Shown piece after piece: positions 43,977 to 61,031 of a stretch of DNA of 64,000 bases. The notes below the pieces were generated by a model. It was not told where the DNA came from. It was given only the letters and a program-made list of their open reading frames with translations, and ran no database searches. The first letter of the stretch is position 1. Each line of letters starts with the position of its first letter. The translations under genes were made by a program, and so were the position numbers. The DNA comes from Chthoniobacteraceae bacterium (lineage in GTDB: Bacteria > Verrucomicrobiota > Verrucomicrobiia > Chthoniobacterales > Chthoniobacteraceae). The stretch lies in contig JANNWY010000212.1 of the NCBI GenBank assembly GCA_031409335.1, positions 32,001 to 96,000 of the forward strand, given 5' to 3'.

Positions 43977-44043
43977 AGACTTGTTTCGCGCCGCCGCCGT
44001 CGCTTAAGTGCCGCTCTTCAAATTTCCCAAACCGACTTTCCCA

Positions 44044-45285
44044 ATGCCCATCTACATCGAAATGCCGAAGCTCAGCGATACCATGACCGAGGGCACGCTC
44101 CTCAAGTGGATCAAACAGGTGGGCGATAAAGTGGAGAGCGGTGATGTGGTGGCCGAGGTCGAGACGGATAAGGCGACGATGGAAATGGAGGCGTTTGACG
44201 ATGGCATTTTGCACAAGCATCTTGTCGCGCCTGGCGCAAAAGTGGCGATTGGCGGAAGAATCGCGCTGCTTTTGCAAAAGGGCGAAAAGGCTCCCGCGGA
44301 AGGCGAGGCGATTCCTGAAAGCCCGCGGAACATCGCCGCGAAAGCGGACACGACTGCGCCGCCGGTGCAGGCAAAGGCTCCCGCTGCCACAGGGGCGGCT
44401 GCGAGTGGTGCGCGGGTGAAGGTCTCGCCGCTGGCGAAAAAGATCGCGGCTTCAAAAGGCGTGGAGCTTTCCAACGTCAGCGGCACAGGCCCCGGCGGGC
44501 GGATCGTGGCGAAGGATGTCGAGAGCGCGGGAACGTCCAACGTTCAACGTTCAACTTCCAACGTCCAAATCCCTGCCACGCCGGCGGGCGCGGGCGATCA
44601 GCGTTTGCCGCTCAGCGGGATGCGCCGGATCATCGCCGAACGACTCCTCACCAGCAAAACGACCATCCCGCATTTCTATCTCCACATCGAAGTCGATGCC
44701 GGGCCACTGATGAAGGCGCGCGCTGCGTTGAACGCGGTGACCGAGGCCTCTGGCGGACCGAAATTTACAGTCAACGATTTCATCCTGAAAGCGGTCGTGA
44801 GCGCGGCGGTGAAAGTGCCCGCGGTGAATGCCAGCTTTGCGGGCGACGCCATCATTCAATACGGCAGCGTGAATCTCAGCGTCGCGGTCGCGGTCGAGGA
44901 CGGACTCGTCACGCCCGTCATCCGCGATGCGCAGAAAAAATCGCTGCGCGAAATCAGCGAAGGCGTGAAAGACCTCGCGACCCGCGCGCGTGGCAAAAAG
45001 CTAAAACCCGAGGAATACGCAGGCGGCACCATCACCGTTTCGAATCTCGGCGCGTACGGCATCGAATCCTTCAGCGCGATCATCAATCCGCCGCAGGCCA
45101 TGATCCTCGCCATCGGTGCGATCGTGAAAAAGCCGGTGGTGAATGACGAAGGGCAGATCGTCGTGGGCCAGCGCATGAGCGTCGGCCTGAGCGCGGATCA
45201 CCGCGTGGTCGATGGCGCAGTCGGTGCGACCTATCTCGCGGAATTGCGGAAGCTCATCGAGCATCCGACGCTGATGCTGCTGTAG
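44044..45285 (+). CDS. pdhC: pyruvate dehydrogenase E2 (dihydrolipoamide acetyltransferase)
   Basis: Lipoyl domain MPKLSDTMTEG...ETDKA, E3-binding SPLAKK...GTGPGGRI, catalytic DHRVVDGA. Confidence 0.96.
   Translation: MPIYIEMPKLSDTMTEGTLLKWIKQVGDKVESGDVVAEVETDKATMEMEAFDDGILHKHLVAPGAKVAIGGRIALLLQKGEKAPAEGEAIPESPRNIAAKADTTAPPVQAKAPAATGAAASGARVKVSPLAKKIAASKGVELSNVSGTGPGGRIVAKDVESAGTSNVQRSTSNVQIPATPAGAGDQRLPLSGMRRIIAERLLTSKTTIPHFYLHIEVDAGPLMKARAALNAVTEASGGPKFTVNDFILKAVVSAAVKVPAVNASFAGDAIIQYGSVNLSVAVAVEDGLVTPVIRDAQKKSLREISEGVKDLATRARGKKLKPEEYAGGTITVSNLGAYGIESFSAIINPPQAMILAIGAIVKKPVVNDEGQIVVGQRMSVGLSADHRVVDGAVGATYLAELRKLIEHPTLMLL
44532..44566 (+). repeat. heptamer tandem repeat in pdhC linker
   Basis: AACGTCC AACGTTC AACGTTC AACTTCC AACGTCC, encoding TSNVQRSTSNVQ. 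Confidence 0.8.
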
Positions 45286-45327
45286 GCGTGGGTTGCCTTT
45301 CCGCGAGCGTTGCGTCATCGTCTCGGA

Positions 45328-45981
45328 ATGGTCGTTCAGACGCCAACGCCGAAACCCGCCCGCAATGGAGGGGCGTCGCGCATCACCTTCGGCCCGCTTG
45401 CCGACCGGTTCGGAGTGTCGCTGCCGCGGGCGATGTCGGAGGATGAATTTTTCAACTTCTGCCAGGCCAACGATCCCATGCGCATCGAGCGCACTCACGA
45501 AGGAGAAATCATCATGATGGCACCGACCGGCGGCGAATCCGGAAATCAAAGCGGAGAAACTTTTGGCCAACTTCGAGACTGGGCTCGCCGCGATGGCGAT
45601 GGCATAGCTTTCGACTCTTCGGCAGGCTTCGTTCTCCCGAACGGAGCCATGCGCGCGCCCGACGTGGCGTGGGTGCGCCGCAAACGGCTCGCGACATTGA
45701 CCGCGGAACAGAAGCGCAAATTTCTCCCACTCTGCCCCGACTTCGTGATCGAAGTGCGCTCCCCCACCGATCGCATCGCCAAGCTCAAGGAAAAGATGGC
45801 CGAATACCTCGCCAACGGCGCGCAACTCGGCTGGCTGATCGAGCCCGACCAGCGCCGGGTCCACGTCTATTCGCCCGACGGTCGCGTCGAGATTCTCAAA
45901 AATCCGCGAAGCATCTCGGGCGATCCGTTGCTCCCCGGTTTCACGCTCGATCTCCAGCCGATTTGGGAACCGGGCTGGTAG
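45328..45981 (+). CDS. Uma2 family (PD-(D/E)xK) endonuclease
   Basis: RIER...GEIIMMAPTG, FDSSAGF.LPNGA.RAPDVAW, CPDFVIEVRSPTD, KM.EY..NG..LGWLI.P. Confidence 0.93.
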   Translation: MVVQTPTPKPARNGGASRITFGPLADRFGVSLPRAMSEDEFFNFCQANDPMRIERTHEGEIIMMAPTGGESGNQSGETFGQLRDWARRDGDGIAFDSSAGFVLPNGAMRAPDVAWVRRKRLATLTAEQKRKFLPLCPDFVIEVRSPTDRIAKLKEKMAEYLANGAQLGWLIEPDQRRVHVYSPDGRVEILKNPRSISGDPLLPGFTLDLQPIWEPGW

Positions 45982-46004
45982 GCGGCGTGCGTCGCAGATT
46001 GACC

Positions 46005-46067
46005 GGCGCGACCTACCTCGCGGAACTGCGGAAGCTGATCGAGAATCCGACGCTGATGTTGTTGTAA
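46005..46067 (+). pseudogene. second copy of pdhC 3' end (att-like remnant)
   Basis: Encodes GATYLAELRKLIENPTLMLL-TAA; 55/63 nt identical to 45223-45285. Confidence 0.92.
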
Positions 46068-46090
46068 GTCTGTTGTCGGTTGGACGCGTT

Positions 46091-47587
46091 TTACTGTCCG
46101 TTTAGTTTCCCGCGACTGATTTTGAGAGTCGATTTCAGGTTCTTTTGAGTCGCGGGGTTGGAGGTTTCCACGGTTTTCTTGGTCAAAGCTTCATAGATAT
46201 TCACCTTTAAGTCCCCCGCCCAGCCATTGGTGTACGCGTTGCTCACGCCGATTTCCATGCCTGGCCCGCTCGGAACTTTCAGGACCACCGTTGCTTCCAC
46301 CTGACTCGGCGAGCGGTCGATGACCGTCTTTTCAAAGCCGAAAGCGCGCTCGCTTTTAACAAAGCCAATATCGTCACGATCCCAACCGCTTACAAAATGT
46401 GGCGGCACGATGAGCTTGGCGACGGCCTCGGCTGTGCTCGGAAAGGTCAGTTCGCATACTGCGGACGGACCCGAAAAGCTGATCAAAAGGGATGCGGTCA
46501 GTTCTTTGGTTGGCATCCCAGCCTTTCCTTCGCGAAAGGAAGCTTCCCAATCGTTGAGTTCGATGCACGCAATTTTCCAACGGGGGATGAGCACTGGCTG
46601 ACCCAGCCCCGACTTTAGCCGGACAGAGTATTCATCCATGCTAAGCATCCGGCCCGTCACTAACTGGTAGTCCAGGAGGAATATCCTCGCTTCCGTCGTG
46701 TCTTTCGGTGACGAGGGAGAAGGTTGGGGAGGCAAAGTCCTGACATTGGGAACGATGACCTCATTGCACGAAACACAGTCCACCTTATACGGTTGCAGGC
46801 TGGCTTTCAGCTTTGCCAGCGGCACTTCGAACCGGCTCCAAAATTCCTTGATCGGCTTTTTCAATGCCACCAACTCCTTACCATCCGTTGGATTGAGAAA
46901 GCGGATATTGAACGATCCGGCAAAACCATTTGCCCGATTGCAAAGCACTTCGCATTCGAGCAGATCGATAGCCGGGATCAGGAGCGTGACGTCCGCGGAG
47001 AGACTGGTTACTGAACGATCATTGCCTCCTTTTTCGAACCACACGCTCGTTCGATCAGTCCCGGCCTTGTCGTCCGTATCCTGTCCCGCGGTGAATTTTG
47101 GTTGCCCATCCACCTTGGAAATGATCGTGCCCCGGGTGAAGAGGATCGTCGCCGCCTCCGCCTCGCCCTCGCAGACGATCCGAACCTTTACTTCTTGTTT
47201 ATCCTGCCGCTTCTCAGGCGAAAGCCAGTCCGTTAGCTGCATCAGGCTGACCTCGGCCCTTTGAAAGGTCTGCGTCTGCCCACCCATGTCAAAACCAACG
47301 GTCGTCGCGTCGATCTTCGTCACCCGTCCGTTGATCCATCCACGATTGACGAGGAACAGGCGATCAACTCCTTCCTGTGCAGGTTCGCTCTTGAGCCCCG
47401 TTTGCCACGACATCTCCGCTGGTATGGGGTCAGCATAGCCATTGGCTGAAAGCAGTAACAGGCAGCATCCAGCCAAAGTTATCCGCTTGATTGTCTGGAT
47501 CTCGGATCCCGAAGTCGAGCGGGCGAGAACCGCCGTTTTGGTGAACGCGGCCAGGAATGGTTGCGAGCGAAGTATGTTTTGTTTCAT
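46091..47587 (-). CDS. secreted hypothetical protein with internal two-fold duplication
   Basis: Hydrophobic LAGCCLLLLSANGYA; two similar halves; visibly lower GC than the backbone; start uncertain. Confidence 0.75.
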   Translation of the reverse strand: MKQNILRSQPFLAAFTKTAVLARSTSGSEIQTIKRITLAGCCLLLLSANGYADPIPAEMSWQTGLKSEPAQEGVDRLFLVNRGWINGRVTKIDATTVGFDMGGQTQTFQRAEVSLMQLTDWLSPEKRQDKQEVKVRIVCEGEAEAATILFTRGTIISKVDGQPKFTAGQDTDDKAGTDRTSVWFEKGGNDRSVTSLSADVTLLIPAIDLLECEVLCNRANGFAGSFNIRFLNPTDGKELVALKKPIKEFWSRFEVPLAKLKASLQPYKVDCVSCNEVIVPNVRTLPPQPSPSSPKDTTEARIFLLDYQLVTGRMLSMDEYSVRLKSGLGQPVLIPRWKIACIELNDWEASFREGKAGMPTKELTASLLISFSGPSAVCELTFPSTAEAVAKLIVPPHFVSGWDRDDIGFVKSERAFGFEKTVIDRSPSQVEATVVLKVPSGPGMEIGVSNAYTNGWAGDLKVNIYEALTKKTVETSNPATQKNLKSTLKISRGKLNGQ

Positions 47588-47625
47588 AATAAGTATTTGT
47601 TGAGCACGAATAGATGGCTTGCCTT

Positions 47626-48627
47626 TCATAAACCGGGTGGATGGCGCAAAACAAAGTTGGCAGCGTAACGCGGGGACGTGCTCCACCGTGGACCGGATTC
47701 ACCAATACCGCGGTGGCCGCCGGTATCGAAGCGCAATCCGCACACGGTCATGAAGACGTGGCCCCGGCCGGCGTAGATCGTGATCCAGCGACCGGGCCCA
47801 GGTTGCCCATACGACCCGAAGCTGCTCGAGGTCAGAGCCCCGGCGAGAAGCCCGGCCTTCCGCAGCACGTAGGAAACGCTGCCGGAACAATCGTAACCTG
47901 AGTCTTCCATTTGACGATGGCCGCCACCCCACTTGTACGGCTTGTTCTGGAGCATGTTTCCCGCGGCGATGGCGCGCTGCACTTCATGGGGAGCTTCGGT
48001 CGGCACGGCGACAAAGCGCCCCAGCGGCAACCGGAACGGCGGCAGCACCTCCCGGACTGCCTCAGGCGCGCTTGGCGAAAAACCCGCGGCCACCAATTCC
48101 TCAGCCAGGACCAGCGGCCAGCGCTCGTTCTGAAAGAACCCGCGATTGATGGCAAGATGGCGCCGGACGCGGGCGATGAATTCGCCGTGAAAAGCCGAAC
48201 CCGCGCTGGCCAGGGCGGGATACCGCTGCATCGCTTCGGTCTGCGCCGGTTTGGAGGCATCCAAGAGAACAGCCGACTCCGCCGCGGAGTCGCCGGACTT
48301 GGGCGCGGAAACGTCGGAGGGCACACCCGCCGCTGCGACTTCTGCTGCCAGCAAGAGGGGCCACCGCTCATTTTGCAAGAACGCCACATTTTCCACCCGG
48401 TATTTCTCCGCGCGCGCGAGAAATTCGCGATGGAAAGGCGACCCCGCGCGGCTCAGTTGCGGATACTTTGCGATCGCCTCGGCTTGGGCGGATATCGCGG
48501 CACGCAGCGCCGCGCGCGGCGCATTCGGCGGCAGCACGACCGCCTCTTCCGCGACGAGCCTCGCGGCTACGGCGAAGAATAACGTGAGGCAGGACTTCGA
48601 GCCGTATTGTTGGTGGCTGATTTTCAT
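47626..48627 (-). CDS. secreted NlpC/P60-type peptidoglycan hydrolase with two N-terminal repeats of an unrecognised domain
   Basis: PYKWGGGH..MEDSGYDCSGSVSYVL, GHVFM, RHPPGL; repeats AQ.EA...YP.L...GS.FH.EF...WPL.LA.E. Confidence 0.85.
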   Translation of the reverse strand: MKISHQQYGSKSCLTLFFAVAARLVAEEAVVLPPNAPRAALRAAISAQAEAIAKYPQLSRAGSPFHREFLARAEKYRVENVAFLQNERWPLLLAAEVAAAGVPSDVSAPKSGDSAAESAVLLDASKPAQTEAMQRYPALASAGSAFHGEFIARVRRHLAINRGFFQNERWPLVLAEELVAAGFSPSAPEAVREVLPPFRLPLGRFVAVPTEAPHEVQRAIAAGNMLQNKPYKWGGGHRQMEDSGYDCSGSVSYVLRKAGLLAGALTSSSFGSYGQPGPGRWITIYAGRGHVFMTVCGLRFDTGGHRGIGESGPRWSTSPRYAANFVLRHPPGL

Positions 48628-48678
48628 ATTGAGTTCCTTCGATCGGATGCTTGGGATTTTAGTGCGGATGGATTCGCG

Positions 48679-49737
48679 TCAGTTTTGGGCGGTCAGCCGG
48701 CCAGCTCCGAGCAGCCGGAAGCTCACTGGAATCGCGAGTTTGTTTCTCCGGATGTCTTCCAGCGAAATGCCCAGAGCGAGACAGGCTGCGGGGGTGAGGT
48801 CGATTCCCGCAGGCACCAAATCGTTGACCGCCGGGGCCGAGGGGCCGTTGTCGATCAACTGGACCAGCACCGACCTTCCTTTGTAGGTGACCACGACCGG
48901 GGAAAACCAGGGCAGGCCCGAAATCCGCGCAAATGGAGAACCCAAGGTGGACCGGCGGGCACTGCTCACGGGTAACGCACAGCCCAGGATTCCGGGATTG
49001 TCCCGAGTGTGGCACCCGCTGGCGCACTTGCCATTGTCGTTGGGGTCGCGCACGCGCAGCTTCGGATCCCAGCCGAAGACCGTCGCGATCGCGTGGGGCA
49101 CGACGAGGTCGCTGCCCTCCCGATAGGTTCTCAGAAACCGCCATTCCGGCGCCGACGACAGCGGCGTTCCGCGAGAAGCGGTGGCTTGCGAATCCACACG
49201 GCCTGGTTTCCCCATTGACGGAAATCCCGCTGCGACGACCTCCTCAGCCAGAGCCAAGGGCCAGCGGTCATCCTTAAAAAAGGCGCTGTCCTGGGCCAAT
49301 CGGCGTTGCACTCTTGCGATGAACTCCCCGTGGAAGGCCGATCCCTGCTTTGCCAGTTCAGGATGGCGGAGCATCGCCTCAATTTGCGCCGGTTTGGAGG
49401 CGGCAAACAGTTCCCGCGGGGTGGCGGAACCGCTTCCTTCATTCGCGGAATCATACGGATTCAAGCCTGCCGCGGCGATCTCGTCCGCCAGTACCACCGG
49501 CCATTGGACGTTCTGAAACAAGGCGCTGTTCGCAACTCTGTACTGCCTGGCGCGCGCGAAAAATTCCCGATGGAAGGCCGACGCGGCGACTCCCAGAGCC
49601 GGATACCTTCTCACCGCCTCCGCCTGCGCAGCCGCACTGGCCGCGGGCAGTGGTGAGATGTCCCCGGCTTGGGCCGCAGCGATGGCGGTGGCGACGAGGG
49701 CGGCGGCGACGGAGCGGGCAAGGAGTTGGAGTTTCAT
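48679..49737 (-). CDS. secreted DPBB/RlpA-like domain protein with two N-terminal repeats of the same domain
   Basis: Signal peptide; ATVFG...GCALP...VVVTYKGRSVLVQLIDNGP...IDLTPAA...LG. Confidence 0.75.
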   Translation of the reverse strand: MKLQLLARSVAAALVATAIAAAQAGDISPLPAASAAAQAEAVRRYPALGVAASAFHREFFARARQYRVANSALFQNVQWPVVLADEIAAAGLNPYDSANEGSGSATPRELFAASKPAQIEAMLRHPELAKQGSAFHGEFIARVQRRLAQDSAFFKDDRWPLALAEEVVAAGFPSMGKPGRVDSQATASRGTPLSSAPEWRFLRTYREGSDLVVPHAIATVFGWDPKLRVRDPNDNGKCASGCHTRDNPGILGCALPVSSARRSTLGSPFARISGLPWFSPVVVTYKGRSVLVQLIDNGPSAPAVNDLVPAGIDLTPAACLALGISLEDIRRNKLAIPVSFRLLGAGRLTAQN

Positions 49738-49820
49738 GAGCGGGGTGGTGCTGCTCTGTCCTTGGGAAACTCCTGCCCGACGATTCGCGAAAAGTTCGCG
49801 AAACCAAAAAAAAACTGCCG

Positions 49821-51818
49821 CTACTTCGCTGGCGGTTCCGGCCCTGACCCGTTTTGTCGCGTCGCCGCCAACTGCGTGCGGACCGCATTCACCGCCGCGA
49901 CGTCCGCCGACTTGCCTGCGAGGCTCCCTGCCAAGGTGGCCAGCGCCGCGTCGTATTGATCGTAGATCGGCTTGAGCTGCGCCGCGCGCTGGGCTGCCGC
50001 TGCCTTCGCCCCCGCGCGATACCCGGCGCGCAACGTCGCCAGCGCCGCCACCATTCCCGCCGCATCCGCCTCTGGGATGGGCTGCCCGCTTTTCAGCAGC
50101 CGCATCTCTTCCTGGAGCGCGCCAAAACCCGCCTGATCACTCGCTCGTTGCGCCACCTCGCTCCCGCGCTGCACCGCCGCGAGATGCTTCGCCCGCACCG
50201 CCTGTATCGCCTGGACAAAAGAGGGTTCGATTTTGGCACAAGCGGCTTGGTGCCATGCTTCGAGTTGCGCGAGCTTCGCCTTCGTCTCCGCGCTCACCGG
50301 CGAGGCCAGCAGCTTCGGCTCCGCCCAGATCGAGTGATCGTCCGTCGTGTTTCCCGCATTGTCGGTTTTGAGGGTGATCATTTTCGTCCCCACCGGAAGC
50401 TCCGCCTCGATCTTCACTTCGTGGTTGGGATACGTGCCCAGATTCTCGCTGCGGAAAACTTCCCTCCCATCCGCCAGCACCTGATAGTTCCACGAAAAGT
50501 TGCGCCGACTGGCCTGTGTCGGCGCGATGCCGACCGCGGTGAACTTCGAGTACCCCGGCGGCACCTCGAAAGACACCTCGCTTGGCGCATGGGCGAAGAG
50601 AAAATGCTGGCACGTGTTTCCGCCGACGAGGATGCGTGCCCCGCGGTCTTCCGCCGCCTTGGCGTAGCGGTTCACGCGATACGATCCAAAGCCCACTCGT
50701 TGCGCCGTCGGGATGAGATCGTCCAAACGCAACTCCAACGGAAACGACGATCCGGCCACTGCCTTGGCACTCGAAAAGAGAACTTCCCACTCTAAAATGC
50801 CTGCCGATCTATCGCCGGTGAACTGTGCCGCGATTCTCAGCCCCATCGTTTTCACGGGCGTAAAGAGGGAGGTATTCCATTCGTTCAATGCCGGAGGGCC
50901 CGGCTGCGTATCCACCGGCATCCACGCCCCATCCTCCGCCAGATACAGCATCTTCCAATAGTGCGGCAGCTTCACTTGGCTATTATCTTGGTACCAATAC
51001 ACCGAGCTGCCCTCGACTGTCTGCGGGGTCGCGAATCGGTACTCCACCCACTCGAATGTTCCCTTGCGCGGACGCCACGTGAACCGCGGGATCAATGCAT
51101 CCTCCGAGGAGGAGGGTCGCTTCCCGTCGTTGAGCGCCGCCACGGTATCACTCACGCAGCAGTGCGACGCTGAGGGCGAGGCCGGGGTTGGCTTTCCGGT
51201 CGTGCCGGCTTTCGCCGGAGTCGAAGCCGTCGCGGCTGGGGCCATGGGCAAAGCGGGCGTTTTCGCGATGGCGGCGACGGGCGCGGCGGCTGGCGCGTTT
51301 TTCGGCGTGATCACGATTTTGCCGTTCGCGGTCGTGTATTGCGCACCAGCCGAATCGCAGATGCTTTTTAGAATTTCCGCTACCGTGGCTTGGTGCGGCC
51401 ACGAAGAGTACGACACGCGGACTTTGGAAAGGCTCCCCGTCGCATCTTGAATCTCGAACGGATTCGGCCAGCGCGAAGTTCGGTAGCGCACCACGAGGGA
51501 ATCCACGGCATCGACCAACTTGTAGTCCCTAAACCCACCCTCCACGGTGGCGGCCATCACCTGCTCAAGCAGATGCGCGGGCATTTTTTTCTCGATTTCC
51601 GCCTTCGCCGTTTGGGCTGCGGCATTCCCGCCGTCGATGCGGAGCGCGAGGTCGTAGCAATTCGCCGCCGCCACCAGGTCGCCGCGTTTCTCAGCGGCTG
51701 CGGCCCGGGCCAGAAAGGCCCTCGCCTGCTCCTGCGGCGTGAGCGCATGGCTGTGGGCGAGGGAAAGCAGGAGCAGCGCGGCGAAAAGGAGCGCACGTGG
51801 GATGGGGATTGTTTTCAT
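49821..51818 (-). CDS. secreted multidomain protein (TPR, discoidin/F5-8-like, NPCBM/NEW2-like)
   Basis: Signal peptide; TPR-like helices; LNDG...FTW.PRKGT.EWVEY.F...VYW; LFAHAPSEVSF...DHSIWAEPKL. Confidence 0.75.
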   Translation of the reverse strand: MKTIPIPRALLFAALLLLSLAHSHALTPQEQARAFLARAAAAEKRGDLVAAANCYDLALRIDGGNAAAQTAKAEIEKKMPAHLLEQVMAATVEGGFRDYKLVDAVDSLVVRYRTSRWPNPFEIQDATGSLSKVRVSYSSWPHQATVAEILKSICDSAGAQYTTANGKIVITPKNAPAAAPVAAIAKTPALPMAPAATASTPAKAGTTGKPTPASPSASHCCVSDTVAALNDGKRPSSSEDALIPRFTWRPRKGTFEWVEYRFATPQTVEGSSVYWYQDNSQVKLPHYWKMLYLAEDGAWMPVDTQPGPPALNEWNTSLFTPVKTMGLRIAAQFTGDRSAGILEWEVLFSSAKAVAGSSFPLELRLDDLIPTAQRVGFGSYRVNRYAKAAEDRGARILVGGNTCQHFLFAHAPSEVSFEVPPGYSKFTAVGIAPTQASRRNFSWNYQVLADGREVFRSENLGTYPNHEVKIEAELPVGTKMITLKTDNAGNTTDDHSIWAEPKLLASPVSAETKAKLAQLEAWHQAACAKIEPSFVQAIQAVRAKHLAAVQRGSEVAQRASDQAGFGALQEEMRLLKSGQPIPEADAAGMVAALATLRAGYRAGAKAAAAQRAAQLKPIYDQYDAALATLAGSLAGKSADVAAVNAVRTQLAATRQNGSGPEPPAK

Positions 51819-51837
51819 CGGTTGGCGTTCGGTGGCG

Positions 51838-54800
51838 TTATCGGTTGAGCCGTGCGTAACCCCATTTGGGAACGTCTTCGATCACGACGAGGCCGTGTTG
51901 AAAGGTGTGATTGGTTTTGAGGGTTGTGCCTCCGAAGCGCGCGATGCGCCGCTTTTCGTCGTCGCGAAAAATCCAGTCGCCTTTCGTATCGATCAAACCG
52001 CCGGACTCCTTTGTCCACACCGCGGCGACACCGGGAGCGATCCATGCGATGCGATCGAATTGTGGTGGCAGCGCCGTGGTGCCGTCCCGATGCAGCAGGC
52101 CGTATTTTTGCCGTGCATCGCGGGCGGTGATGAGACCGCCGCTGCGTGGGTCGGTCTCACGATCGCGCCACGGCTCCGCCCACACCGCCGCAGTCAACGG
52201 GCGGCCAGCCTCGTCGATGAGCAACCACGGCGCGCCCTTGCCGGCAGCCGCGTCCGCACGTCGCCATCCCCGCGTGGCGGTTGCTGCGACCGCATTGCCC
52301 CACGCGCGAGGCACCACGGCGGCACCCTCGCCTTTCCGCATCACGATCAGCGCGTCTTTCTCGACAAGCATCGCACCGACGGAGAAGTTCATCCACCGGT
52401 GCGCGGGATCGATCAACAAGGCACCGGTGCGATCGATCAGCGCGGCCTCAATGCCGATCGTCACCCGTGCGACATCCATCGACACCGGTGCACCATCGTC
52501 CGCGGGATCACCGTGCCATTCCCAAAAGTCGCGGGCCGAATCCCACACCGGCTCGATCGCCACCTTGCCCTGCGGGTCGAGGTAGCCCCATCGCCCGTCC
52601 TTTTGCACCGCCGCGAGGCCGCGGCTGAAATCCATCACTGCATCCCACACCTGCGGGACTGCGACCTTTCCATCCAACGCGATGAAGCCCCACTTCCCCT
52701 CGCGCTGCACCGCCGCGCGGCCTTCGAAAAAATCGTGCGTCGCCTGCCACTTGTCGGGCGAGATGGGCTTTACCTCAGTATCGACGACCACCCACCCATC
52801 CGGCTGGTGCAGCGCGGCGCGGCCCTCGACGAAACCCCAGCCATCCGGCTTTTCCTCCAGCGGCTGCGAGTGCTGGAAGTCGTGGCCATCGCGACCCATC
52901 AGCCGCCAGCGCGAGGTCGCCTTGTCGCGTATCCAGAGCAGGCCGTGGCTGGCCTGCTCCCAGTTCCAGCGCAGGGCGGCGGCCTCGGGAAAGCGCGTCT
53001 GCTTTCCGGTCGCCGACTCGATCAGGCTGAGGACGAAGCCGCCCTGCCCGTCCGGCTGTTTAATGACGACATGCGCCGGGCCGTAAAAATCCACGTAGGT
53101 CGCGTCGGGCAGCGTTTCGGGGATGGCCGGCTGCCCATTGATTTGCAAAATCTTTGTCGTCGCGCCGTCCTTCACGCGCACCCACGGCGAGAGGAAGCGT
53201 TTGCCGCCCCAGCCGAGGAGGATGGTCTTGCCGTCTTTGGCGAGCGTCGCCCACTCCACGAGCAGCACGTCCAGCGCATCCCACACCGGCGCGATGAGCA
53301 CCTTCCCCGTCCGATCGGCCAGCCCGATTTTCTCATCCTGGCGAAACCACACCCACTCGGGCGAAAGGATGTGCGCCTCATCCCAAGTCGGCTCGACCAG
53401 CGTCTTCCCGGTCGCGTCGATCACCCCATACTTCGGCGGCGTGGTGCGGGGAATAAAATCGTCGAGCACGGTCGATCCCGGTGCGACCGCATCGACGACT
53501 TTAGCGCCGCTGCCATCGAGAATCGCGGCGGCCCGTCCGCCGTCGTAGGAGTCCGTGCCTTGATAGCCAAACGGATGATTACCGTAGCCACCCGACAGCG
53601 GGTTCTCGGTGCGCAAACCCATGAGTCCCGGCTTGCCCTCCGGTGCCGCACTCTCCTCCCCTTTGAGATTGAGCCCCCTTCCTTGAACGACCCGATTCGT
53701 AGAATCCAATTGTTCAAGCTTCAGAAATCCATTCCGAAACTGAGGCGCTTCGTTAGCAACACCTCGCCAAAAAAGCTTCCACGTCTTGCCGCCAAATGCC
53801 GCTTTCCCGTTCTTCTCCACGAAGGAGGTCGTTAAGAATGCGTAAAGTCGTACAGGGTCAGAGGTAACTGCGGCTAAGCCTTCCGAGAAACCCCCGATCA
53901 TTGTCCAGGCAGGTTCCGCGATGTGCTCTCCATCCGGCCCGACCAATCCCCATTTGAAGCCTCGTCTGACGGACGCGACCCCATCCCGAAAATCCCGCAC
54001 CTCATCCCACTCGGGCTTCGCAACGACATTGCCGCTGCGATTGATGAAGCCCCAGAGGTTACCCCGCCGAACGGCGGCGAAACCGTCGCTAAAATCCCGC
54101 ACTTCATCCCACTCGTTCTTGATCACGATTTTCCCTGCCCGATCAATGAAGCCCCACTTCCTGCTTTTTGATAGGCAAGGAGCCAATCCCTCAGAAAATC
54201 GACGGATTGTCGTAAACTGATGAGGACGGACCACCCACTCGCCCTTGCGATCTGCCAAGCCCATGGTTTCTGCTTCCCGCAGGAGAACATGCACTAACTC
54301 ATTGGATTCCCATCGAAATTCGCCTGCCACCGTTCCTAACTTCTGTCCATTGGCACCGATCAACCGCGTCCTCTCGGGAGAGGAGCAGTAAAAGAAATCG
54401 TTCCGCATGATCGTAGACTTGCAACGCGACTCCGGGACTTCCTTGCCGTAAAGATCGAGCAACGCGCTATACCGTTCCTCCGGGCGGTCGCTTAGCCCGT
54501 AATACAGCCTCAGCAAGCCAAGATCGAATCGGCGGTCGGGCCTCCAGTTGATGCTGCAATTCGGTTCACAGAGCAATTGCCCGGCTGTATCGACAAGCCC
54601 CCAACCCGCGCCCCGCCGCACCATGCCGACTCCCTCCTTCGCAAAATTCACCGCCCCGTCCCACACCGGCTCTACGATCACTTTGCCGGCCTTGTCGATG
54701 AACCCGCGCTTTCCATCGCGCGTCACCACCGCGAAGCCTTCGGGCGAAAAGCGCCAGGCGTCGTCCCAGTCGCAGGGGATCGTCAGCTTTCCGCTGGCAT

Positions 54801-55677
54801 CCAGATAGCCCCACTTGCCGTCCTTTTGCACCGGGATGAAGCCGTTGATGAAGTGCTGCACGTCCTCCCACTCGGGCGCTGCCACCAACTTGCCGGCGCG
54901 GTCGAGCAGGCCCCACTTGCCGCCCTGGCTCACGCGCGCGGAGCCTTGCTCCCCGAAAGGCTCGATCGTGTCGAAAGTGGGCGGCTGCACGACCGCGCCC
55001 GCTTCGTCGATCACGCCCCACGCTTTCCCTGCGCGCACCCGCGCCAGTCCCCAGCGCGAGAAGGGCGTGACCTCATCGAACTGCGGCTGGATCGTCCACG
55101 ACCAGCCCTTGTTTTTCCAAGTCTCCGTGCGCGGCCAGCGGAGGAAAACCTGGCGCGGCGGTGAAGAAACCGCGTCATCGGCCTTCGTTGTCGTCACCGC
55201 GAGCACGTCCGGGCAATCGATGACTTTCGTCGCGAGATTGTCGCGCACCCAGACGGTCGAACCTTGTTGTGCAGGGTAGGTGTCGGTGAGCCAGCCGGTG
55301 AGTTCTTTCCGGCTTTTCTGCGCGGTCACGGCGATGTCGAGGATTTCCGCACCGGTGCGCTCGGCGAGTTCGCGTGCCTCGCCGAGGGTGAGTTTTTTCC
55401 GGCTCAGGCCGATGAACCCCGAGGCGTAAGGATCAATTTGCCCGATCTCTTTGATGAGCAGATCCTTGGTGGTCGCGCCGCTGGCGACGAGGCTGGTGAA
55501 GTAGGTGTTGTTGAACGTGCGCTTGCGGTCGAGCTCGCGCTTTTTGATGACATCGCCGATCTGCCGCCAGGCAATGAAGACGGCGAGCCCTCCGAGCAGC
55601 AGCAGCGCGACGGTGCCGAGGATGCGCAGGTTGCGATTGAGGCCGAGGTAGGCGGTGAGCAGTCGATTCGGTTTCAT
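51838..55677 (-). CDS. membrane-anchored WG-repeat (KWG) protein with N-terminal lectin-like module
   Basis: TM helix; many F.EG.A.V...GKWG(F/Y)ID..G......P.WD repeats. Confidence 0.9.
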   Translation of the reverse strand: MKPNRLLTAYLGLNRNLRILGTVALLLLGGLAVFIAWRQIGDVIKKRELDRKRTFNNTYFTSLVASGATTKDLLIKEIGQIDPYASGFIGLSRKKLTLGEARELAERTGAEILDIAVTAQKSRKELTGWLTDTYPAQQGSTVWVRDNLATKVIDCPDVLAVTTTKADDAVSSPPRQVFLRWPRTETWKNKGWSWTIQPQFDEVTPFSRWGLARVRAGKAWGVIDEAGAVVQPPTFDTIEPFGEQGSARVSQGGKWGLLDRAGKLVAAPEWEDVQHFINGFIPVQKDGKWGYLDASGKLTIPCDWDDAWRFSPEGFAVVTRDGKRGFIDKAGKVIVEPVWDGAVNFAKEGVGMVRRGAGWGLVDTAGQLLCEPNCSINWRPDRRFDLGLLRLYYGLSDRPEERYSALLDLYGKEVPESRCKSTIMRNDFFYCSSPERTRLIGANGQKLGTVAGEFRWESNELVHVLLREAETMGLADRKGEWVVRPHQFTTIRRFSEGLAPCLSKSRKWGFIDRAGKIVIKNEWDEVRDFSDGFAAVRRGNLWGFINRSGNVVAKPEWDEVRDFRDGVASVRRGFKWGLVGPDGEHIAEPAWTMIGGFSEGLAAVTSDPVRLYAFLTTSFVEKNGKAAFGGKTWKLFWRGVANEAPQFRNGFLKLEQLDSTNRVVQGRGLNLKGEESAAPEGKPGLMGLRTENPLSGGYGNHPFGYQGTDSYDGGRAAAILDGSGAKVVDAVAPGSTVLDDFIPRTTPPKYGVIDATGKTLVEPTWDEAHILSPEWVWFRQDEKIGLADRTGKVLIAPVWDALDVLLVEWATLAKDGKTILLGWGGKRFLSPWVRVKDGATTKILQINGQPAIPETLPDATYVDFYGPAHVVIKQPDGQGGFVLSLIESATGKQTRFPEAAALRWNWEQASHGLLWIRDKATSRWRLMGRDGHDFQHSQPLEEKPDGWGFVEGRAALHQPDGWVVVDTEVKPISPDKWQATHDFFEGRAAVQREGKWGFIALDGKVAVPQVWDAVMDFSRGLAAVQKDGRWGYLDPQGKVAIEPVWDSARDFWEWHGDPADDGAPVSMDVARVTIGIEAALIDRTGALLIDPAHRWMNFSVGAMLVEKDALIVMRKGEGAAVVPRAWGNAVAATATRGWRRADAAAGKGAPWLLIDEAGRPLTAAVWAEPWRDRETDPRSGGLITARDARQKYGLLHRDGTTALPPQFDRIAWIAPGVAAVWTKESGGLIDTKGDWIFRDDEKRRIARFGGTTLKTNHTFQHGLVVIEDVPKWGYARLNR

Positions 55678-55714
55678 GGGATCAGGGCAGAGAGGTCAAC
55701 GGAACGCGAAGCGC

Positions 55715-55851
55715 GGTGGATGGCGCGCTCCGCCGCGCCATAAGAAAACAATCCGCCGCAGGCGCACTTTCGCTGTCCGGGCGTCCGGGAAAAAGTTGGC
55801 TCGCTGCACTCGATTGGCTTTGGCATGGCGCGGCGGAGCGCGCCATCCACC
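55715..55851. repeat. GTGG-type REP doublet (REPIN-like)
   Basis: Perfect 27-bp arms GGTGGATGGCGCGCTCCGCCGCGCCAT (55715-55741 / 55825-55851). Confidence 0.88.
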
Positions 55852-55864
55852 TTGGGTTGCGTGT

Positions 55865-57514
55865 TCATCGGGCGGGAGGGTTGGCGGCGGGGGCACGGTC
55901 GCCGGCGACGATCGTGGTCGGGTAGAGCTTCAGGACTTTCGTGGCCCAGCTCTGCTTGTCGAAAAGGCCGATGTTGCTGGTGAAAGTGTATTTGCCTGGC
56001 AGGCGCGGCGCATAGGCTATGAGATCGAAAGTGATCTCGCCTGCGCCGTTCACGCTCTCGTAGCCGGGGCGCGATTCGGTGTCGAAATGCCAGGTCGCTG
56101 CGTGGTTCGCGCTCAACTCCGCGAGGAATTCCGGCGGGAGAATGTTGGCGTCTTTCATCAGGAGATTCGACGCGAGTTTCGTGGGGTCCGGTGCTTTGTA
56201 GCGGGCGGTGACGTTGAGCGTGAACTTTTCGCCCGCTTTGGCCGGGATGGTGATTTCCTTCGCCAGCGAAAGCGTCGCGGGCGGGCGGACGGAGGTGATC
56301 TCGATCTCATAACGCGGGTCCCATCCCCAAATCATCGAAATCGGCTGCATCGTTGTGGCGACCGTTTCGCCTTTGGCCGCCTCCCTCATCTCGATCTTCA
56401 ACTCGTCGGCCTCAACTGCGTCGATGCACAGAAAACTGACCTCAGCGTCGCCCTTGCCTACTGGATACGTCCTGGTGTCTCGAGTGCGAGGATGGCCCAC
56501 CACTTCCCCGTCCTTTCGCGGTGTTGCCCAGAGGCGAACATCGCTTGGGCCGGGGTTATTGTATTCGACCACAGCTTTCAGCGTGTCACCGATTACCATA
56601 GAGGTCGCAGGCTTGGGTTCGACTGCTTTGATCCTTACCCAGGCGTGATCCTTGTCGTTCCGCAGCGGGTACCAGTTGAAAAGCGCGGTCCGCCGGCGGT
56701 CGAGCGTCGTCACGGGATTAACGTCCGGCCCGTCGAGCACGCGCGGCTCGCCGGCTTCCATCGCCCACGTCGTCGTGCCGAGCAGCTCGGGGTAGGCGGC
56801 GGCGACGGCCTCGATCACCGGCTGGCGCATGGCTACTCCCGGCGGTTCGATCGTGAGGACGTGGGAGCCGGTCTTCTTCGCGAGCGCCTGCGCCTGCACC
56901 CATGTGAGTTTTTCCCGGCTCACGCCGAGGAAAGTGACGCCCATCGGCTGGATGTTTGTCACTTGCTGCAGGTCGGCCGCCGTCGTCGCGCCGGACGCGA
57001 TCAACTCTTGGAAAAACTTGTTGTTGATCACTTCGATTCTCTCGTCGCGCTTAATGTTCAATGTCGTGGGGACTTTCCGTGTCGCGAGGAAAATGCCCAG
57101 TCCGCCGAGCAAAAGCAGCGCTGTCGCGCCGAGGATCACGAGGTTGCGATTCGACTGCCGGAGGCGGGTCGCCAGCACCGTGAAAACGCCCGGCTTTTCC
57201 GCCAGAGGAGCGGCGGGAACAGCCGGTGCGGCGGCGCGGCTGCCGGGAACGGGCACGGGGCTGCCGCAGGTGGGGCAGTCGAAATGCGAACTGTCCTGGA
57301 GCGAGCGCAGGGTTTCCAAGTCGATCTCGATCGCCACCGCGCAGGCGGGACATGGGATTTGGATGCCTTTGATCCCCGGCGCGGCAACTGGCGCTGGTAC
57401 TGGGACATTCCCTTTGCATGTCGGGCACTCGAACTCCGTCGCGCCGTCGAGGGCGGCGAGCGTTTCGGCGTCCAGTTCGAGGGCTTGGGTGCAATGCGGG
57501 CAGGTCGTTTCCAT
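55865..57514 (-). CDS. membrane protein with two Zn ribbons, TM, lectin-like module and Ig-like C-terminal domains
   Basis: CPHC...CPTC and CPAC...CPTC; TM ILGATALLLLGGLGIFLA; LTWVQAQALAKKTG. Confidence 0.8.
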   Translation of the reverse strand: METTCPHCTQALELDAETLAALDGATEFECPTCKGNVPVPAPVAAPGIKGIQIPCPACAVAIEIDLETLRSLQDSSHFDCPTCGSPVPVPGSRAAAPAVPAAPLAEKPGVFTVLATRLRQSNRNLVILGATALLLLGGLGIFLATRKVPTTLNIKRDERIEVINNKFFQELIASGATTAADLQQVTNIQPMGVTFLGVSREKLTWVQAQALAKKTGSHVLTIEPPGVAMRQPVIEAVAAAYPELLGTTTWAMEAGEPRVLDGPDVNPVTTLDRRRTALFNWYPLRNDKDHAWVRIKAVEPKPATSMVIGDTLKAVVEYNNPGPSDVRLWATPRKDGEVVGHPRTRDTRTYPVGKGDAEVSFLCIDAVEADELKIEMREAAKGETVATTMQPISMIWGWDPRYEIEITSVRPPATLSLAKEITIPAKAGEKFTLNVTARYKAPDPTKLASNLLMKDANILPPEFLAELSANHAATWHFDTESRPGYESVNGAGEITFDLIAYAPRLPGKYTFTSNIGLFDKQSWATKVLKLYPTTIVAGDRAPAANPPAR

Positions 57515-57516
57515 GG

Positions 57517-59229
57517 CTATTGAGGTGGAGTTTTGGGTGCGGAGATTTCCGGGGCAGGGAGCCATTGGACGATGGCTTTCCGCGGACGATCGGGGTCGGT
57601 CGCGGGCAGTAGTTTTCTTCCGTCAAACAGCAGACCTTCGCCTTTTCGACGAACCCACACGCCTTCCGCCAAATCGGCAGGGAACGTGGGAAGCAGCCAT
57701 TCGAGCAGCCGCTGCGGTGAGACGGTGTCATCCTGCTCGATGGCAAGGATGCTGCCGCCGGTGCGCGCGGCGAGATCGCCCGCTTGGGCGAAGGTGAAAG
57801 GCTCGCGGCTGATGCCGACGTAGCTGACGCCGAAGTGGTGGATTTCCGCGAAGGATTCCAACTCTCTGGCACCGGGACCAGTGGTGAAGAGTTGGGTAAC
57901 GTAGCTGTTGTTCGTCTCGGTGCTGGTGGTGGAGGTTTCCGAGTTGTGGGTGTCGCCTGTCTTGCGATGCGCGAGGATAAAAGCGAGGCCACCGATGGTC
58001 AGCAGCGCGACCAGCCCGAGGATGAGCGTGGTCGTGTTCAGCCCGCGCGTCGTCTCGAGAATCAGTTCCGTGGATTGCGCGTCGTACTGGAGCGTTGCCG
58101 GTTTTTCCTCCCGAATCGCGGGCGTTTGTCGGCGGCGCGCGAGCGGGCCGCCCGCGAGACTCGAGGGCAGCGGCTCGGGCTCGACGCCGGCGGGCAGCGG
58201 GCAGCCGCCGGAAGTGACTTTGATCCAATCCACGTCGAGCATGAATTCGGACGCCGACTGGTAACGCTCGGCGGGATTTTCCTGGAGCGCGCGGAGGACG
58301 ACTTCATCGAGCCGCGCGTCGATCTCGACCTTCTGGCTCGGCGGCGACCACGCTCCGTGCGGCAGGGTGCCGGTGAGGAATTCGTAGAGCATCACTCCGA
58401 GCGAATAAAGGTCCGCGCGGTGGTCCACCCGCCGACCATCGCGCTGCTCAGGAGCCATGTATTCGGGCGTGCCCACGGTGCCGCCGGGGCGGGTCAGCGT
58501 CGGGTTCATCCTTGGGCGCGATTTCGTGCCGACGATCCGCGCGAGACCGAAATCGGCGACCTTCGCCCGCCCGTCGCCGGTCACGAGGATGTTCGACGGT
58601 TTGATGTCGCGGTGAACGATGCCCGCGCCGTGCGCGTAGTGCAAAGCGGAGCAAACCTGCGAGATCAGTTCGAGCGCTCCGGCCAGGGTCAACTGCCCGT
58701 TTTCGCGCAGCGCACCGATGTGGGCGCCGTCCACCAGTTCCATGACGAAGTACACGTAACCCCCGGCGGTTTTTCCAAAGTCGTGGACCTTTGCGATGTG
58801 CGGATGATCGAGCGCGGCCATCGCCCGGGCCTCCTGCTCGAAGCGAGCGAGCGCATCGGGGTGGCCGCCATTTTCGACGGGCAGGATTTTGACGGCGATC
58901 TCACGGTGCAAGCGCGTGTCCAGCCCGTGATAAACCGCGCCCATTCCGCCGCGGCCGAGGAGCGCGGTGATCCGGTAGCGGCCCTCGAAAGAGCCATCGA
59001 GTTCCTCCGGCGCGGGCGCTTCCCATTCGCCGTCCGCCGGTTGCGGGGTCTCGAAGCCGCGCATCAGCAGATGGCCGGCCTCCAGTCCATCGAGAGAATC
59101 CGCGGCAGCCGGGACCGGGACGGGCTGCGAGCACGAGGGACACTCGAAATCGGCGCGGCCTTGCAGCGACGCCTTGGCCTCCGCGTCGATGGCGATCTTC
59201 TGGGCGCAATGTGGGCAACTCACTTTCAT
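57517..59229 (-). CDS. Zn-ribbon Ser/Thr protein kinase with TM and extracytoplasmic lectin-like module
   Basis: CPHC...CPSC; LGRGGMGAVY, AVK, HRDIKPSNIL, DFG, GTPEYMAPE, DLYSLG. Confidence 0.94.
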   Translation of the reverse strand: MKVSCPHCAQKIAIDAEAKASLQGRADFECPSCSQPVPVPAAADSLDGLEAGHLLMRGFETPQPADGEWEAPAPEELDGSFEGRYRITALLGRGGMGAVYHGLDTRLHREIAVKILPVENGGHPDALARFEQEARAMAALDHPHIAKVHDFGKTAGGYVYFVMELVDGAHIGALRENGQLTLAGALELISQVCSALHYAHGAGIVHRDIKPSNILVTGDGRAKVADFGLARIVGTKSRPRMNPTLTRPGGTVGTPEYMAPEQRDGRRVDHRADLYSLGVMLYEFLTGTLPHGAWSPPSQKVEIDARLDEVVLRALQENPAERYQSASEFMLDVDWIKVTSGGCPLPAGVEPEPLPSSLAGGPLARRRQTPAIREEKPATLQYDAQSTELILETTRGLNTTTLILGLVALLTIGGLAFILAHRKTGDTHNSETSTTSTETNNSYVTQLFTTGPGARELESFAEIHHFGVSYVGISREPFTFAQAGDLAARTGGSILAIEQDDTVSPQRLLEWLLPTFPADLAEGVWVRRKGEGLLFDGRKLLPATDPDRPRKAIVQWLPAPEISAPKTPPQ

Positions 59230-60237
59230 GGAAATGATTTCTCGCTACCTCCTGCTTCGGTATTGCCGGAAAATGGTTTCGCGGGAAGCATCGAATTGTG
59301 GGAACAAAATCGCGGTGGCGTGTTCGCGCGATCCGCGGCTAACGCACGACGAACGCGAAGTCCTGCGTGGCCAGCAGGTGAAAGTGGGGACAGCCGCAGG
59401 GGTGCGCGCCGCAGCCCAGATGGGTGTAGTTCGCGCGCAGGATATTGGCGCGATGGCCCGGCGATTTCATCCACTGCGCCACGACGGCCCGCGCATAGCC
59501 CCAATAGGTGTAACCGCCGGCGCCGAGGCTCGAAATGTTTTCACCCGCCGCCATGTTTTTCGCACCCGCCGCGTCGAGCCGCAGGAAGGGACTGGCTTTG
59601 GCGGGATCGCGAGGATTTCCATGCGAGAAAAACCCGCCGAGCGCCATGTCCCGCGAATGTCCCCAAGCCGCCTCGCGCAGGGCCGGCAGCGGGATGAGCG
59701 GGCGCAGTTTTTGAGACCGCCGCGCCGCGTTGGTGGCGTGAAAAATGGCGGCGCTGAGGAAGGCATGGTCGAGCGCCTCCCGATCGAGCTTTTGCCGCGC
59801 GAGTGGGAGCTGGCTGAAGGTTTCCGCCGTGTGGCCGGAATACCAATCCGCCAGCGGGTTCGGCGTTGGCGTGTCCGCCGGCGGCAGTGCGCGGGCGATT
59901 TCATCCGCGAGAGCGAGCGGCCACGCGGGGTCGTCGAAAAGACTGGGATTCTCGGCGCGGGCTTTTTGCACCCCGGCGAGGAATTCGCGATTGAACGCGG
60001 AGCCGGCCACGCCCAGCGGCGGATATTTTTTCACCGCTTCCGCCTGCGCGACCGCGCTGGCCGGGGGTGGTGCGGGCGCCTCTTGCGCTGGCGCGAACGA
60101 TCCGGGCAGAGCCAGGCACGCGGCCAGGACGATGAAGGGGAGGGAATGCGGGCAACTCGTTTTCATAGGCATGATTTCTCGCTGCCTGCTACTTCGGTAT
60201 TGCCGGAAAATGGTTTCGCGGAAAGCATCGAATCGTG
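59208..60237. repeat. 93-bp direct repeat (promoter/leader plus first codons) flanking the CAP gene
   Basis: 59208-59300 versus 60145-60237, about 82/93 identical by manual alignment. Confidence 0.9.
59339..60166 (-). CDS. secreted CAP/SCP domain protein with one copy of the unrecognised N-terminal domain
   Basis: TNAARR, HSRDMA..GFFSH, GENI, WMKSPGHRANIL, ATQDF; AQAEAVKKYPPLGVAGSAFNREF...WPLALADE. Confidence 0.88.
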   Translation of the reverse strand: MKTSCPHSLPFIVLAACLALPGSFAPAQEAPAPPPASAVAQAEAVKKYPPLGVAGSAFNREFLAGVQKARAENPSLFDDPAWPLALADEIARALPPADTPTPNPLADWYSGHTAETFSQLPLARQKLDREALDHAFLSAAIFHATNAARRSQKLRPLIPLPALREAAWGHSRDMALGGFFSHGNPRDPAKASPFLRLDAAGAKNMAAGENISSLGAGGYTYWGYARAVVAQWMKSPGHRANILRANYTHLGCGAHPCGCPHFHLLATQDFAFVVR

Positions 60238-60966
60238 AAAAAGACCCACGAACCCGCCGCGCATGGATTTCCCGCCACGCGGTGGAGCCTTGTCCGGAAG
60301 GCGTGCGATTCCGGTGAAAGGGAGGCGGACTTGGACGCGCTCCAGCAGGTCTGCCTGGATTACTGGTTTCCACTCTATGCCTGGGCGCGGCATTCGCGCC
60401 GGTCGCAGGAGGATGCCGAGGATTTGATCCAGAGCTTTTTCGAGCAGTTGCTCGAAAAGGAATTTCTTCAACGCGCCGATCGGGAAAAGGGACGCTTGCG
60501 GACTTTCCTGCTGACGTGTCTCAAACGCCACGCCGCGGATCTCACGGACAAGGCGCACGCGGCGCGGCGCGATGCGCGGAAAACCATCTCGCTCGATTTC
60601 GAGTGGGCCGAGGGCCGCTACCACGATCACCAGCAGGATTCCAACGGCCCGGACAAACTCTACGACCAGCGCTGGGCGCACGCCCTGTTGCAATATGCGC
60701 TGGCGGCTTTGCGCGAGGAACTGGAAGCCGATGGTCGCGCGACGGAATACGCCATCTTAAAGTCGTTTCTCGGTTTCGATGCCGACGAACAAACGTCGTC
60801 GAAGGATGCTGCCGCAAGCCTGGGCATCGGTGAGGCCGCGTTGAAATCGCGAGTGTTCCGGTTGCGAAAGCGATTTCACGAAATCGTGAAGAATCACGTC
60901 GCGCAAACGGTCGGCAGCGATTTGAAGGCGAAGGACGAATTGATGGAATTGATGAGCGTCATTTGA
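60235..60966 (+). CDS. ECF-type sigma-70 factor (same family as 661-1407)
   Basis: FPATRWSLV, YWFPLYAWAR, DAEDLIQSFF, KGRLRTFLL, VFRLRKRF; divergent from the kinase cluster. Confidence 0.9.
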   Translation: MKKTHEPAAHGFPATRWSLVRKACDSGEREADLDALQQVCLDYWFPLYAWARHSRRSQEDAEDLIQSFFEQLLEKEFLQRADREKGRLRTFLLTCLKRHAADLTDKAHAARRDARKTISLDFEWAEGRYHDHQQDSNGPDKLYDQRWAHALLQYALAALREELEADGRATEYAILKSFLGFDADEQTSSKDAAASLGIGEAALKSRVFRLRKRFHEIVKNHVAQTVGSDLKAKDELMELMSVI

Positions 60967-60968
60967 CC

Positions 60969-61031
60969 CGCGCGACCTGTCTGGTGGAATTGCGGAAGCT
61001 CATCGAGAATCCGTCGCTGATGCTGCTGTGA
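60969..61031 (+). pseudogene. third, more degenerate copy of pdhC 3' end
   Basis: Encodes RATCLVELRKLIENPSLMLL-TGA; 54/63 nt identical to 45223-45285. Confidence 0.9.

Follow-up and report, generated by a model that had tools for sequence, protein, structure and literature searches.

Extra 3′ ends of pdhC around two gene blocks in a Chthoniobacteraceae genome are probable scars of homology-anchored recombination

Introduction

How does the end of a housekeeping gene come to be present three times on one contig? This question is raised by pdhC, the gene for dihydrolipoamide acetyltransferase (E2), in a Chthoniobacteraceae bacterium whose 7.9-Mb metagenome-assembled genome (G000 below) consists of 326 contigs. 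The window under study, meaning the whole 64,000-nt stretch that was analysed, is G000:C212:32001-96000, and positions refer to it unless a contig is named. In this window, we found that the final 21 codons (63 nt) of pdhC are present three times around two blocks of other genes (cargo 1 and cargo 2). We propose that the extra tails are probably scars of homology-anchored additive recombination with DNA of a related strain or species. Taken alone, the array at pdhC is an ordinary scar, but it matters as one of about 36 that can be counted in a single genome (29 orphan tails and 7 orphan heads). This count shows that the organism routinely gains genes at the ends of housekeeping genes without an integrase, and the scars form a set for testing how such insertions arise. 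Orphan tails of this kind can also be mistaken for the attachment (att) sites of lost integrative elements.

The end of pdhC is present three times

The host gene, its three ends and the two junctions are as follows (ECF, extracytoplasmic function).

44008..45285, + strand: pdhC, dihydrolipoamide acetyltransferase E2, intact host gene (Pfam Biotin_lipoyl, E3_binding, 2-oxoacid_dh); the start is likely the ATG at 44044
45223..45285, + strand: tail copy 1, the working pdhC end, stop TAG (sequence comparison)
45999..46004, + strand: junction hexamer TTGACC ahead of copy 2, 17 nt past the Uma2 stop
46005..46067, + strand: orphan tail copy 2, stop TAA, a displaced working allele with nearly all divergence silent (6 synonymous, 1 nonsynonymous)
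60963..60968, + strand: junction hexamer TTGACC ahead of copy 3, overlapping the ECF stop
60969..61031, + strand: orphan tail copy 3, stop TGA, decayed, likely the oldest resident end (sequence comparison)

A preliminary description of this DNA had placed the three ends and their stop codons at these positions, and its coordinates are correct. When the tail was searched against the genome by blastn, the orphans were found with E-values of 6e-13 and 1e-14 and there was no fourth copy. The three copies differ from each other at 8-11 of 63 nt and are 83-87% identical along their full length. Copy 2 differs from copy 1 at 8 of 63 nt, of which 7 are silent (counting the stop codon) and one changes H>N, and the earlier view of it as a once-functional allele is borne out by these counts. 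Copy 3 differs from copy 1 at 9 nt (1 synonymous and 4 nonsynonymous against the host); the missense changes Y>C, A>V and T>S that had been listed are present, but the list was incomplete, as G>R and H>N are also found. At the H>N site, each of the three same-genus relatives that have pdhC has N, and therefore copy 1 carries the derived residue. Copy 2 differs from the pdhC tail of genome G002 at 6 of 63 nt, compared to 8 for copy 1. Within pdhC, no mosaic step is visible against the three same-genus relatives. The contrast between copy 2 (6 synonymous to 1 nonsynonymous) and copy 3 (1 to 4) agrees with the proposal that the blocks were inserted serially, each bringing its own working pdhC tail and pushing the old one downstream, so that the distal tail is the oldest.

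Orphan gene ends across the genome

To count such ends, we took 330 nt from each end of 4,494 genes of at least 450 nt (our own gene calls) and compared them with the 45 kb on both sides of each gene. Automatically, 41 orphan tails were found downstream at 37 genes, compared to 17 hits at 14 genes for tails upstream, 13 at 11 for heads upstream and 8 at 7 for heads downstream; several of the tail-upstream control hits are the same pairs viewed from the other side. After 12 tail hits were removed as repeats, paralogues or antisense duplicates, 29 orphan tails of 24-303 nt were retained at 27 of the 4,494 genes, that is, pdhC and 26 others, with lepA, argF, dxr, ubiD and hemN among the hosts named by eye. 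Inspection also left 7 orphan 5′ heads, including those of prfC and two cas1-like genes, with cargo between the head and the gene. When orphan-versus-host differences were pooled, we found 230 synonymous and 154 nonsynonymous changes (ratio of nonsynonymous to synonymous rates, pN/pS, 0.22; p 1e-47 against neutral decay). Because the differences are mostly silent, the orphans are diverged working alleles and not decayed self-copies.

Judged by eye, the cargo comprises toxin-antitoxin pairs, restriction-type genes, Uma2, pairs of ECF and kinase genes, and secreted proteins. The genome search for recombinases that had been suggested did return hits (18 tyrosine, 3 serine and 3 IS110), but none lies in any of the 29 cargo intervals or on contig C212, in keeping with the earlier remark that no integrase is visible. 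A Y1 transposase hit is present in 1 of the 29 intervals. Among the 41 junctions, no common motif or structure was found. The preliminary description had also argued for a dedicated, fixed recombination point at pdhC, and this we do not uphold: the same scar is present at 26 other genes without a common motif, seven mirror-image heads exist, the orphan start varies within an array on contig C280, the TTGA of the third junction belongs to the Ile-stop end of an ECF gene, and no relative examined has an orphan pdhC tail.

When we performed the same scan on other genomes of the family (1.79 Mb, 1,059 genes), there were 3 hits, of which 1 is real as compared to 6.4 expected; in this small set, the Poisson p value is 0.013 for at most one and 0.048 for at most two, and Fisher tests give 0.03-0.15. 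The two hits that were dropped are low-complexity sequence in G092 and an internal repeat in L041, the latter judged from scores. The real hit, in G023 (L120-L139, joined coordinates 257964-262294), is a 136-nt orphan tail of a comM-like gene, 95% identical, behind one cargo gene, and no integrase was seen at this scar, which belongs to a different genus from G000. End scars thus exist in relatives, and they may be commoner in G000.

Homology-anchored additive recombination as the proposed mechanism

In the mechanism that we favour, incoming DNA from a relative would bring its own pdhC end together with the genes that follow and would pair with the pdhC already present. Its far end would then be joined illegitimately inside the resident gene near the 3′ end, so that the old 63-nt end is cut off downstream. 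Copy 3 would be the oldest resident end, the 15-kb block would have arrived with the copy-2 allele, and the Uma2 gene would have come last, with copy 1. Two possible routes would lead to an identical product and are indistinguishable here: transformation with homology-facilitated illegitimate recombination (HFIR), and a single crossover that integrates a circle formed illegitimately. Homologues of comEC and dprA are present in the genome, and natural transformation is a possible entry route.

Anchored recombination is the simplest process for these scars because the targets are many and unrelated, the lengths are variable, the divergence is of an allelic type, mirror forms exist and there is no enzyme gene. 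The model predicts a mirror form, and the orphan 5′ heads with cargo are that form. At G000:C325:54520-65825, the order is lepA, cargo X, an orphan argF end, an orphan lepA end, cargo Y and argF; the two orphans overlap in a 6-nt microhomology, TCGGCG (about 61739-61744), and all 13 changes in the 194 nt of the lepA orphan are synonymous. These are two alleles of one intergenic locus joined head to tail, the arrangement that such a join would give. Of the 3-10 nt of microhomology expected at an HFIR joint, 6 nt is present at lepA/argF; for the pdhC joints, no donor sequence was found. A homologous anchor from a diverged donor allele is supported by the silent-biased divergence and by a 151-nt contig from metagenome sample X3 that joins a pdhC end to Uma2 at 85% identity, which hints at this linkage in a diverged lineage as well.

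Furuta et al. 2010 (PMC2853133) describe insertion with long target duplication, in which imperfect direct repeats of more than 30 bp and of variable length flank inserts that are below 20 kb and lack mobility genes; most of the species are naturally competent, the cargo is restriction-modification genes (the selection criterion of that survey) and empty sites were shown. At pdhC, the flanking direct repeat is 63 nt, and the inserts are 0.7 and 14.9 kb, both below 20 kb, without mobile-element genes by Pfam scan and recombinase searches, as in the structural part of that definition. In contrast, the pdhC cargo is Uma2 and an ECF/kinase block with no empty site found, the repeat is the end of a coding gene and has diverged in the manner of an allele, and two inserts are stacked. 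Nobusato et al. 2000 is reference 37 of that survey. Pfam finds no methyltransferase in the pdhC cargo, and Uma2 is only a putative endonuclease. For the serial displacement of 3′ parts at type VI secretion, Rhs and CdiA loci, HFIR has been invoked (Kirchberger et al. 2017, PMC5361080). Those arrays resemble pdhC in having a conserved upstream anchor, no integrase and old 3′ parts displaced serially to the back of the array, but their displaced piece is a toxin or immunity module, whereas at pdhC it is the end of a housekeeping enzyme without apparent function of its own. The pdhC array thus likely belongs to a known, mechanistically unsettled kind of integrase-free insertion that is already in print (Furuta et al. 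2010). In a literature search of main texts, we found no paper on pdhC as such an insertion target, and queries for Chthoniobacter islands with direct repeats and for a displaced fragment with an integrase gave nothing on the pdhC locus.

The TTGACC junctions

The hexamer TTGACC, which had been noted before both orphans, is indeed present at 45999-46004 and 60963-60968, where the host pdhC reads GCAGTC at the corresponding position. Both pdhC orphans begin at one identical base, so the crossover point is fixed in these two instances, the only ones available. The ECF gene in front of copy 3 ends ATT TGA (Ile-stop), and its orthologue in genome G145 (68%) stops at the same codon; the TTGA of this junction is therefore the natural end of the ECF gene. 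No likeness between the junctions extends beyond 6 nt, there is no conserved element-side att arm, and no stable hairpin is common to the three sites. Among the 41 scanned junctions, TTGAC is restricted to pdhC.

For the 17 nt between the Uma2 stop and the second TTGACC, we also considered an origin as a decayed ECF end and rejected it, since the likeness is no better than random. TTGAC was compared by eye to the target of IS200/605-type elements, the attC of integrons and the –35 box of sigma-70 promoters, and no fitting partner elements were found; contig C212 has no Y1 transposase.

Several observations weigh against homology-anchored recombination. No donor sequence and no empty site was found, and the pdhC-Uma2 contig from X3 is a single short, low-depth record. 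HFIR usually deletes recipient DNA rather than duplicating it. It is also rare, at 1e-2 to 1e-3 of homologous transformation (summarised in PMC6382021). Tails outnumber heads by 27 to 7 (p 0.0008), an excess that a symmetric mechanism could account for only by invoking selection or biased detection, and GC enrichment at the junctions is slight (0.69 vs 0.62, p 0.02) and carries an alignment-start bias. The identical start base and five non-host bases occur twice, with a chance of about 0.024 x 0.0018 = 4e-5 per pair for independent random joins, so that additive recombination needs an extra assumption here. The 17-nt spacer is not like the ECF end beyond the hexamer (P 0.65), and common descent of the two junctions therefore rests on 5-6 nt.

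There is about an even chance that the second TTGACC was copied from the first junction (the ECF stop joined to the tail) and carried forward by stacking. An orphan-bearing allele would recombine with the working tail of the island allele and copy the junction forward, an account that would explain why copy 2 looks functional. It is possible, if rather doubtful, that the recurrence arose by coincidence and stood out because a very large number of windows was scanned, and a site-specific enzyme is an unlikely cause, with no att arm and no other instance.

Alternative explanations

Tandem accretion of site-specific elements would give a similar array: an integrase would target the 3′ end of pdhC, and the blocks would be decayed elements like the cis-mobilizable elements (CIMEs), with the recombinase lost or acting in trans. 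CIMEs accrete in tandem at the 3′ ends of fda, rpsI, rpmG and rplL in streptococci (PMC7563491), and, as at pdhC, they stack up behind a housekeeping gene as tandem blocks of 1-15 kb that lack recombination genes, with decay most advanced in the distal block. The identical crossover base and hexamer at both pdhC orphans and the 18 tyrosine and 3 serine recombinase hits elsewhere in the genome would fit such an origin. However, CIMEs retain att sites and derive from families of integrative and conjugative or integrative and mobilizable elements (ICE and IME) at the same site, and neither is seen for pdhC, where contig C212 has no recombinase, relatives have no second tail and there is no room for att arms, as the third junction overlaps the natural ECF stop and only 6 nt are common. 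The e14 prophage in E. coli icd, which leaves the icdC pseudogene (PMC13626634), likewise supplies a new 3′ end for a central metabolic gene with the old end downstream and mostly silent differences, but e14 has a site-specific system with SOS-induced excision and such genes are absent from the pdhC blocks.

The relatives argue in the same direction. The gene after pdhC differs across the family and is often lpdA, and the site is therefore variable, as the proposed comparison of downstream regions had anticipated, but that comparison gave neither an empty site nor an orphan tail. Relatives have one tail followed by other genes, and in none is pdhC next to an FG-GAP gene. No orphan tail was found in 29 relatives' loci of +-1.5 kb or in 20 downstream regions of 3.5-20 kb, and no second strong tail match in 150 family genomes, where 81 gave any match and sensitivity is limited. 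TTGACC followed by a degenerate tail had no match in the GTDB genome collection and, as a strict pattern, none in metagenome contigs. A looser pattern gave one metagenome match (L051), which was rejected as chance because it lies inside an unrelated reading frame. A homologue of the island in G145 adjoins tex (named by eye from its translation), not pdhC. Finally, 27 unrelated targets would require equally many lost integrases. Site-specific accretion is for these reasons unlikely. A possible orphan tail of another gene behind the G145 island was also rejected, since the 86-nt match falls in DNA that looks non-coding, next to a ligase-like ORF.

Given that the junction recurs and that scars are many across the genome, there is a small chance of something more directed: this lineage would run a dedicated, integrase-free capture route that uses gene ends as handles, is 3′-biased and several-fold more active than in relatives, and has a sequence preference by which two unrelated cargos came to lie behind TTGACC at one base of pdhC. 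As a further rival, an undescribed sequence-directed pathway acting in trans would prefer gene 3′ ends and join cargo just past a stop codon. The tail-to-head bias, several junctions within 25 nt of a cargo gene end and a scar rate apparently above that of relatives are what such a pathway would give. But the junctions have no common motif or structure, heads exist, selection and trimming would by themselves place junctions near cargo stops, few genes were available for comparison and there is no candidate enzyme, and we regard it as improbable.

That the tail was duplicated internally and then decayed neutrally, with the cargo arriving separately, is very improbable: copy 3 on its own looks neutral, but copy 2 has 6 synonymous to 1 nonsynonymous changes and is nearer to the G002 tail than to copy 1, and the excess of silent changes in the pooled data (pN/pS 0.22) largely refutes it.

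To assess the assembly, we aligned Logan contigs from samples X1, X2 and X3 of one study, of which X1 may be the source sample, to the window. One X1 contig (45076-50659, 0 differences) covers tail copies 1 and 2 and a second (58585-62239) covers copy 3. In X2, all three junctions are bridged, each by separate contigs with 0 differences, and in X3 the copy-1 and copy-3 junctions are bridged with 0 differences. None of the contigs holds the full 16-kb array; those of X1 and X2 break at a 38-nt inverted repeat (87%; 55704-55862) between two island genes, which is possibly a dispersed repeat. An excised-circle or restored-empty-site joint was absent from the best 15 of 54 matches and from one of one further, in contigs that drop rare variants. 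From runs X5 and X7 (a small share), there were only pieces of relatives' pdhC or Uma2. A misassembly is unlikely, and a chimera of co-occurring strains at the 63-nt repeat, however suggestive the fragmented metagenome assembly, the related strains in the runs and the want of one spanning contig, is hardly credible given that the copies differ at 8-11 of 63 nt, that two or three samples bridge each junction exactly and that cargo and flanks have an even depth (about 11 in X1).

The cargo blocks and the downstream gene

The window has no tRNA, and its 43-64 kb region has no Rfam match. The genes behind pdhC are as follows.

45328..45981 (ORF from 45310), + strand: cargo 1, Uma2-family putative endonuclease (PF05685, E 1.6e-44)
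46068..60968: cargo 2, a block of 14.9 kb with eight genes read leftward, one ECF sigma gene and no mobility gene
46091..47686, – strand: ORF without Pfam family in the Pfam scan, of lower GC (0.53-0.56)
47626..48627, – strand: weak NlpC/P60 match, below cut-off (E 1.8e-4)
48679..49737, – strand: protein without Pfam family in the Pfam scan, with repeats in common with its neighbours
49821..51818, – strand: NPCBM/NEW2-domain protein (Pfam)
51838..55677, – strand: WG-repeat protein (Pfam)
55865..57565, – strand: zinc-ribbon protein (Pfam)
57517..59229, – strand: Ser/Thr protein kinase (Pfam)
59339..60166, – strand: CAP-domain protein (Pfam)
60235..60966, + strand: ECF-type sigma factor (Pfam; G145 orthologue 68%)
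61000..62976, – strand: FG-GAP repeat gene, convergent, with a 32-nt overlap with copy 3 and its stop on the antisense strand of copy 3

The 19 relatives returned for the Uma2 protein are 43-63% identical and all from other phyla, and a match at E<=1e-40 is present in 1 of 150 family genomes. Cargo 2 encodes secreted- or envelope-type repeat proteins, a Ser/Thr kinase and an ECF sigma factor. In G145, which belongs to another genus, the part with the kinase, the ECF factor and a small protein is homologous to cargo 2 at 73-74% DNA identity. A 119-nt repeat (81% identical; 59182-59300 and 60119-60237) spans the start and the upstream region of both the kinase and the CAP gene, and it is also present upstream of genes in the G145 block; it is possibly an ECF promoter.

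Among 19 relatives of the FG-GAP protein, 17 stop 0-5 residues past an NPR motif; here 11 residues follow, and the other 2 relatives likewise read on past the usual end. From this comparison, the gene appears to have lost its usual end. Copy 3 was probably retained because the FG-GAP stop codon now lies inside it.

Individual scars elsewhere

At G000:C170:49253-58404, we found an orphan tail (52615-52718) and, 1.3 kb away, an orphan prfC head (54039-54145, 98% identical). The 5′ end of prfC is a known ICE target; no integrase hit was found at this scar. At G000:C301:27152-29101 and C252:172-1906, an orphan 5′ head lies upstream of a cas1-like gene (by eye), with a small toxin-antitoxin-like pair between head and gene in both. 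At G000:C280:14198-19623, there are three serial orphan ends of one large secreted-type protein gene, and their start points differ.

At G000:C195:20986-60472, a 38-kb block rich in filamentous-haemagglutinin-like and CHAT-like ORFs (by eye) is bounded by a 40-nt, 95%-identical gene-end repeat, and no recombinase hit was found within the block. At C216:16453-19811, C83:91596-97284 and C304:81058-93890, the orphan tail is seemingly the in-frame C-terminus of the last cargo gene, and such a fusion could preserve the tail. The C83 scar also has methylase-like and Vsr-like ORFs (by eye). Two further scar-bounded blocks, at contig positions C212:24383-37383 and C235:4547-15218, each have a pair of ECF sigma and Ser/Thr kinase genes, and the junction of the first again lies 6 nt past a cargo stop.

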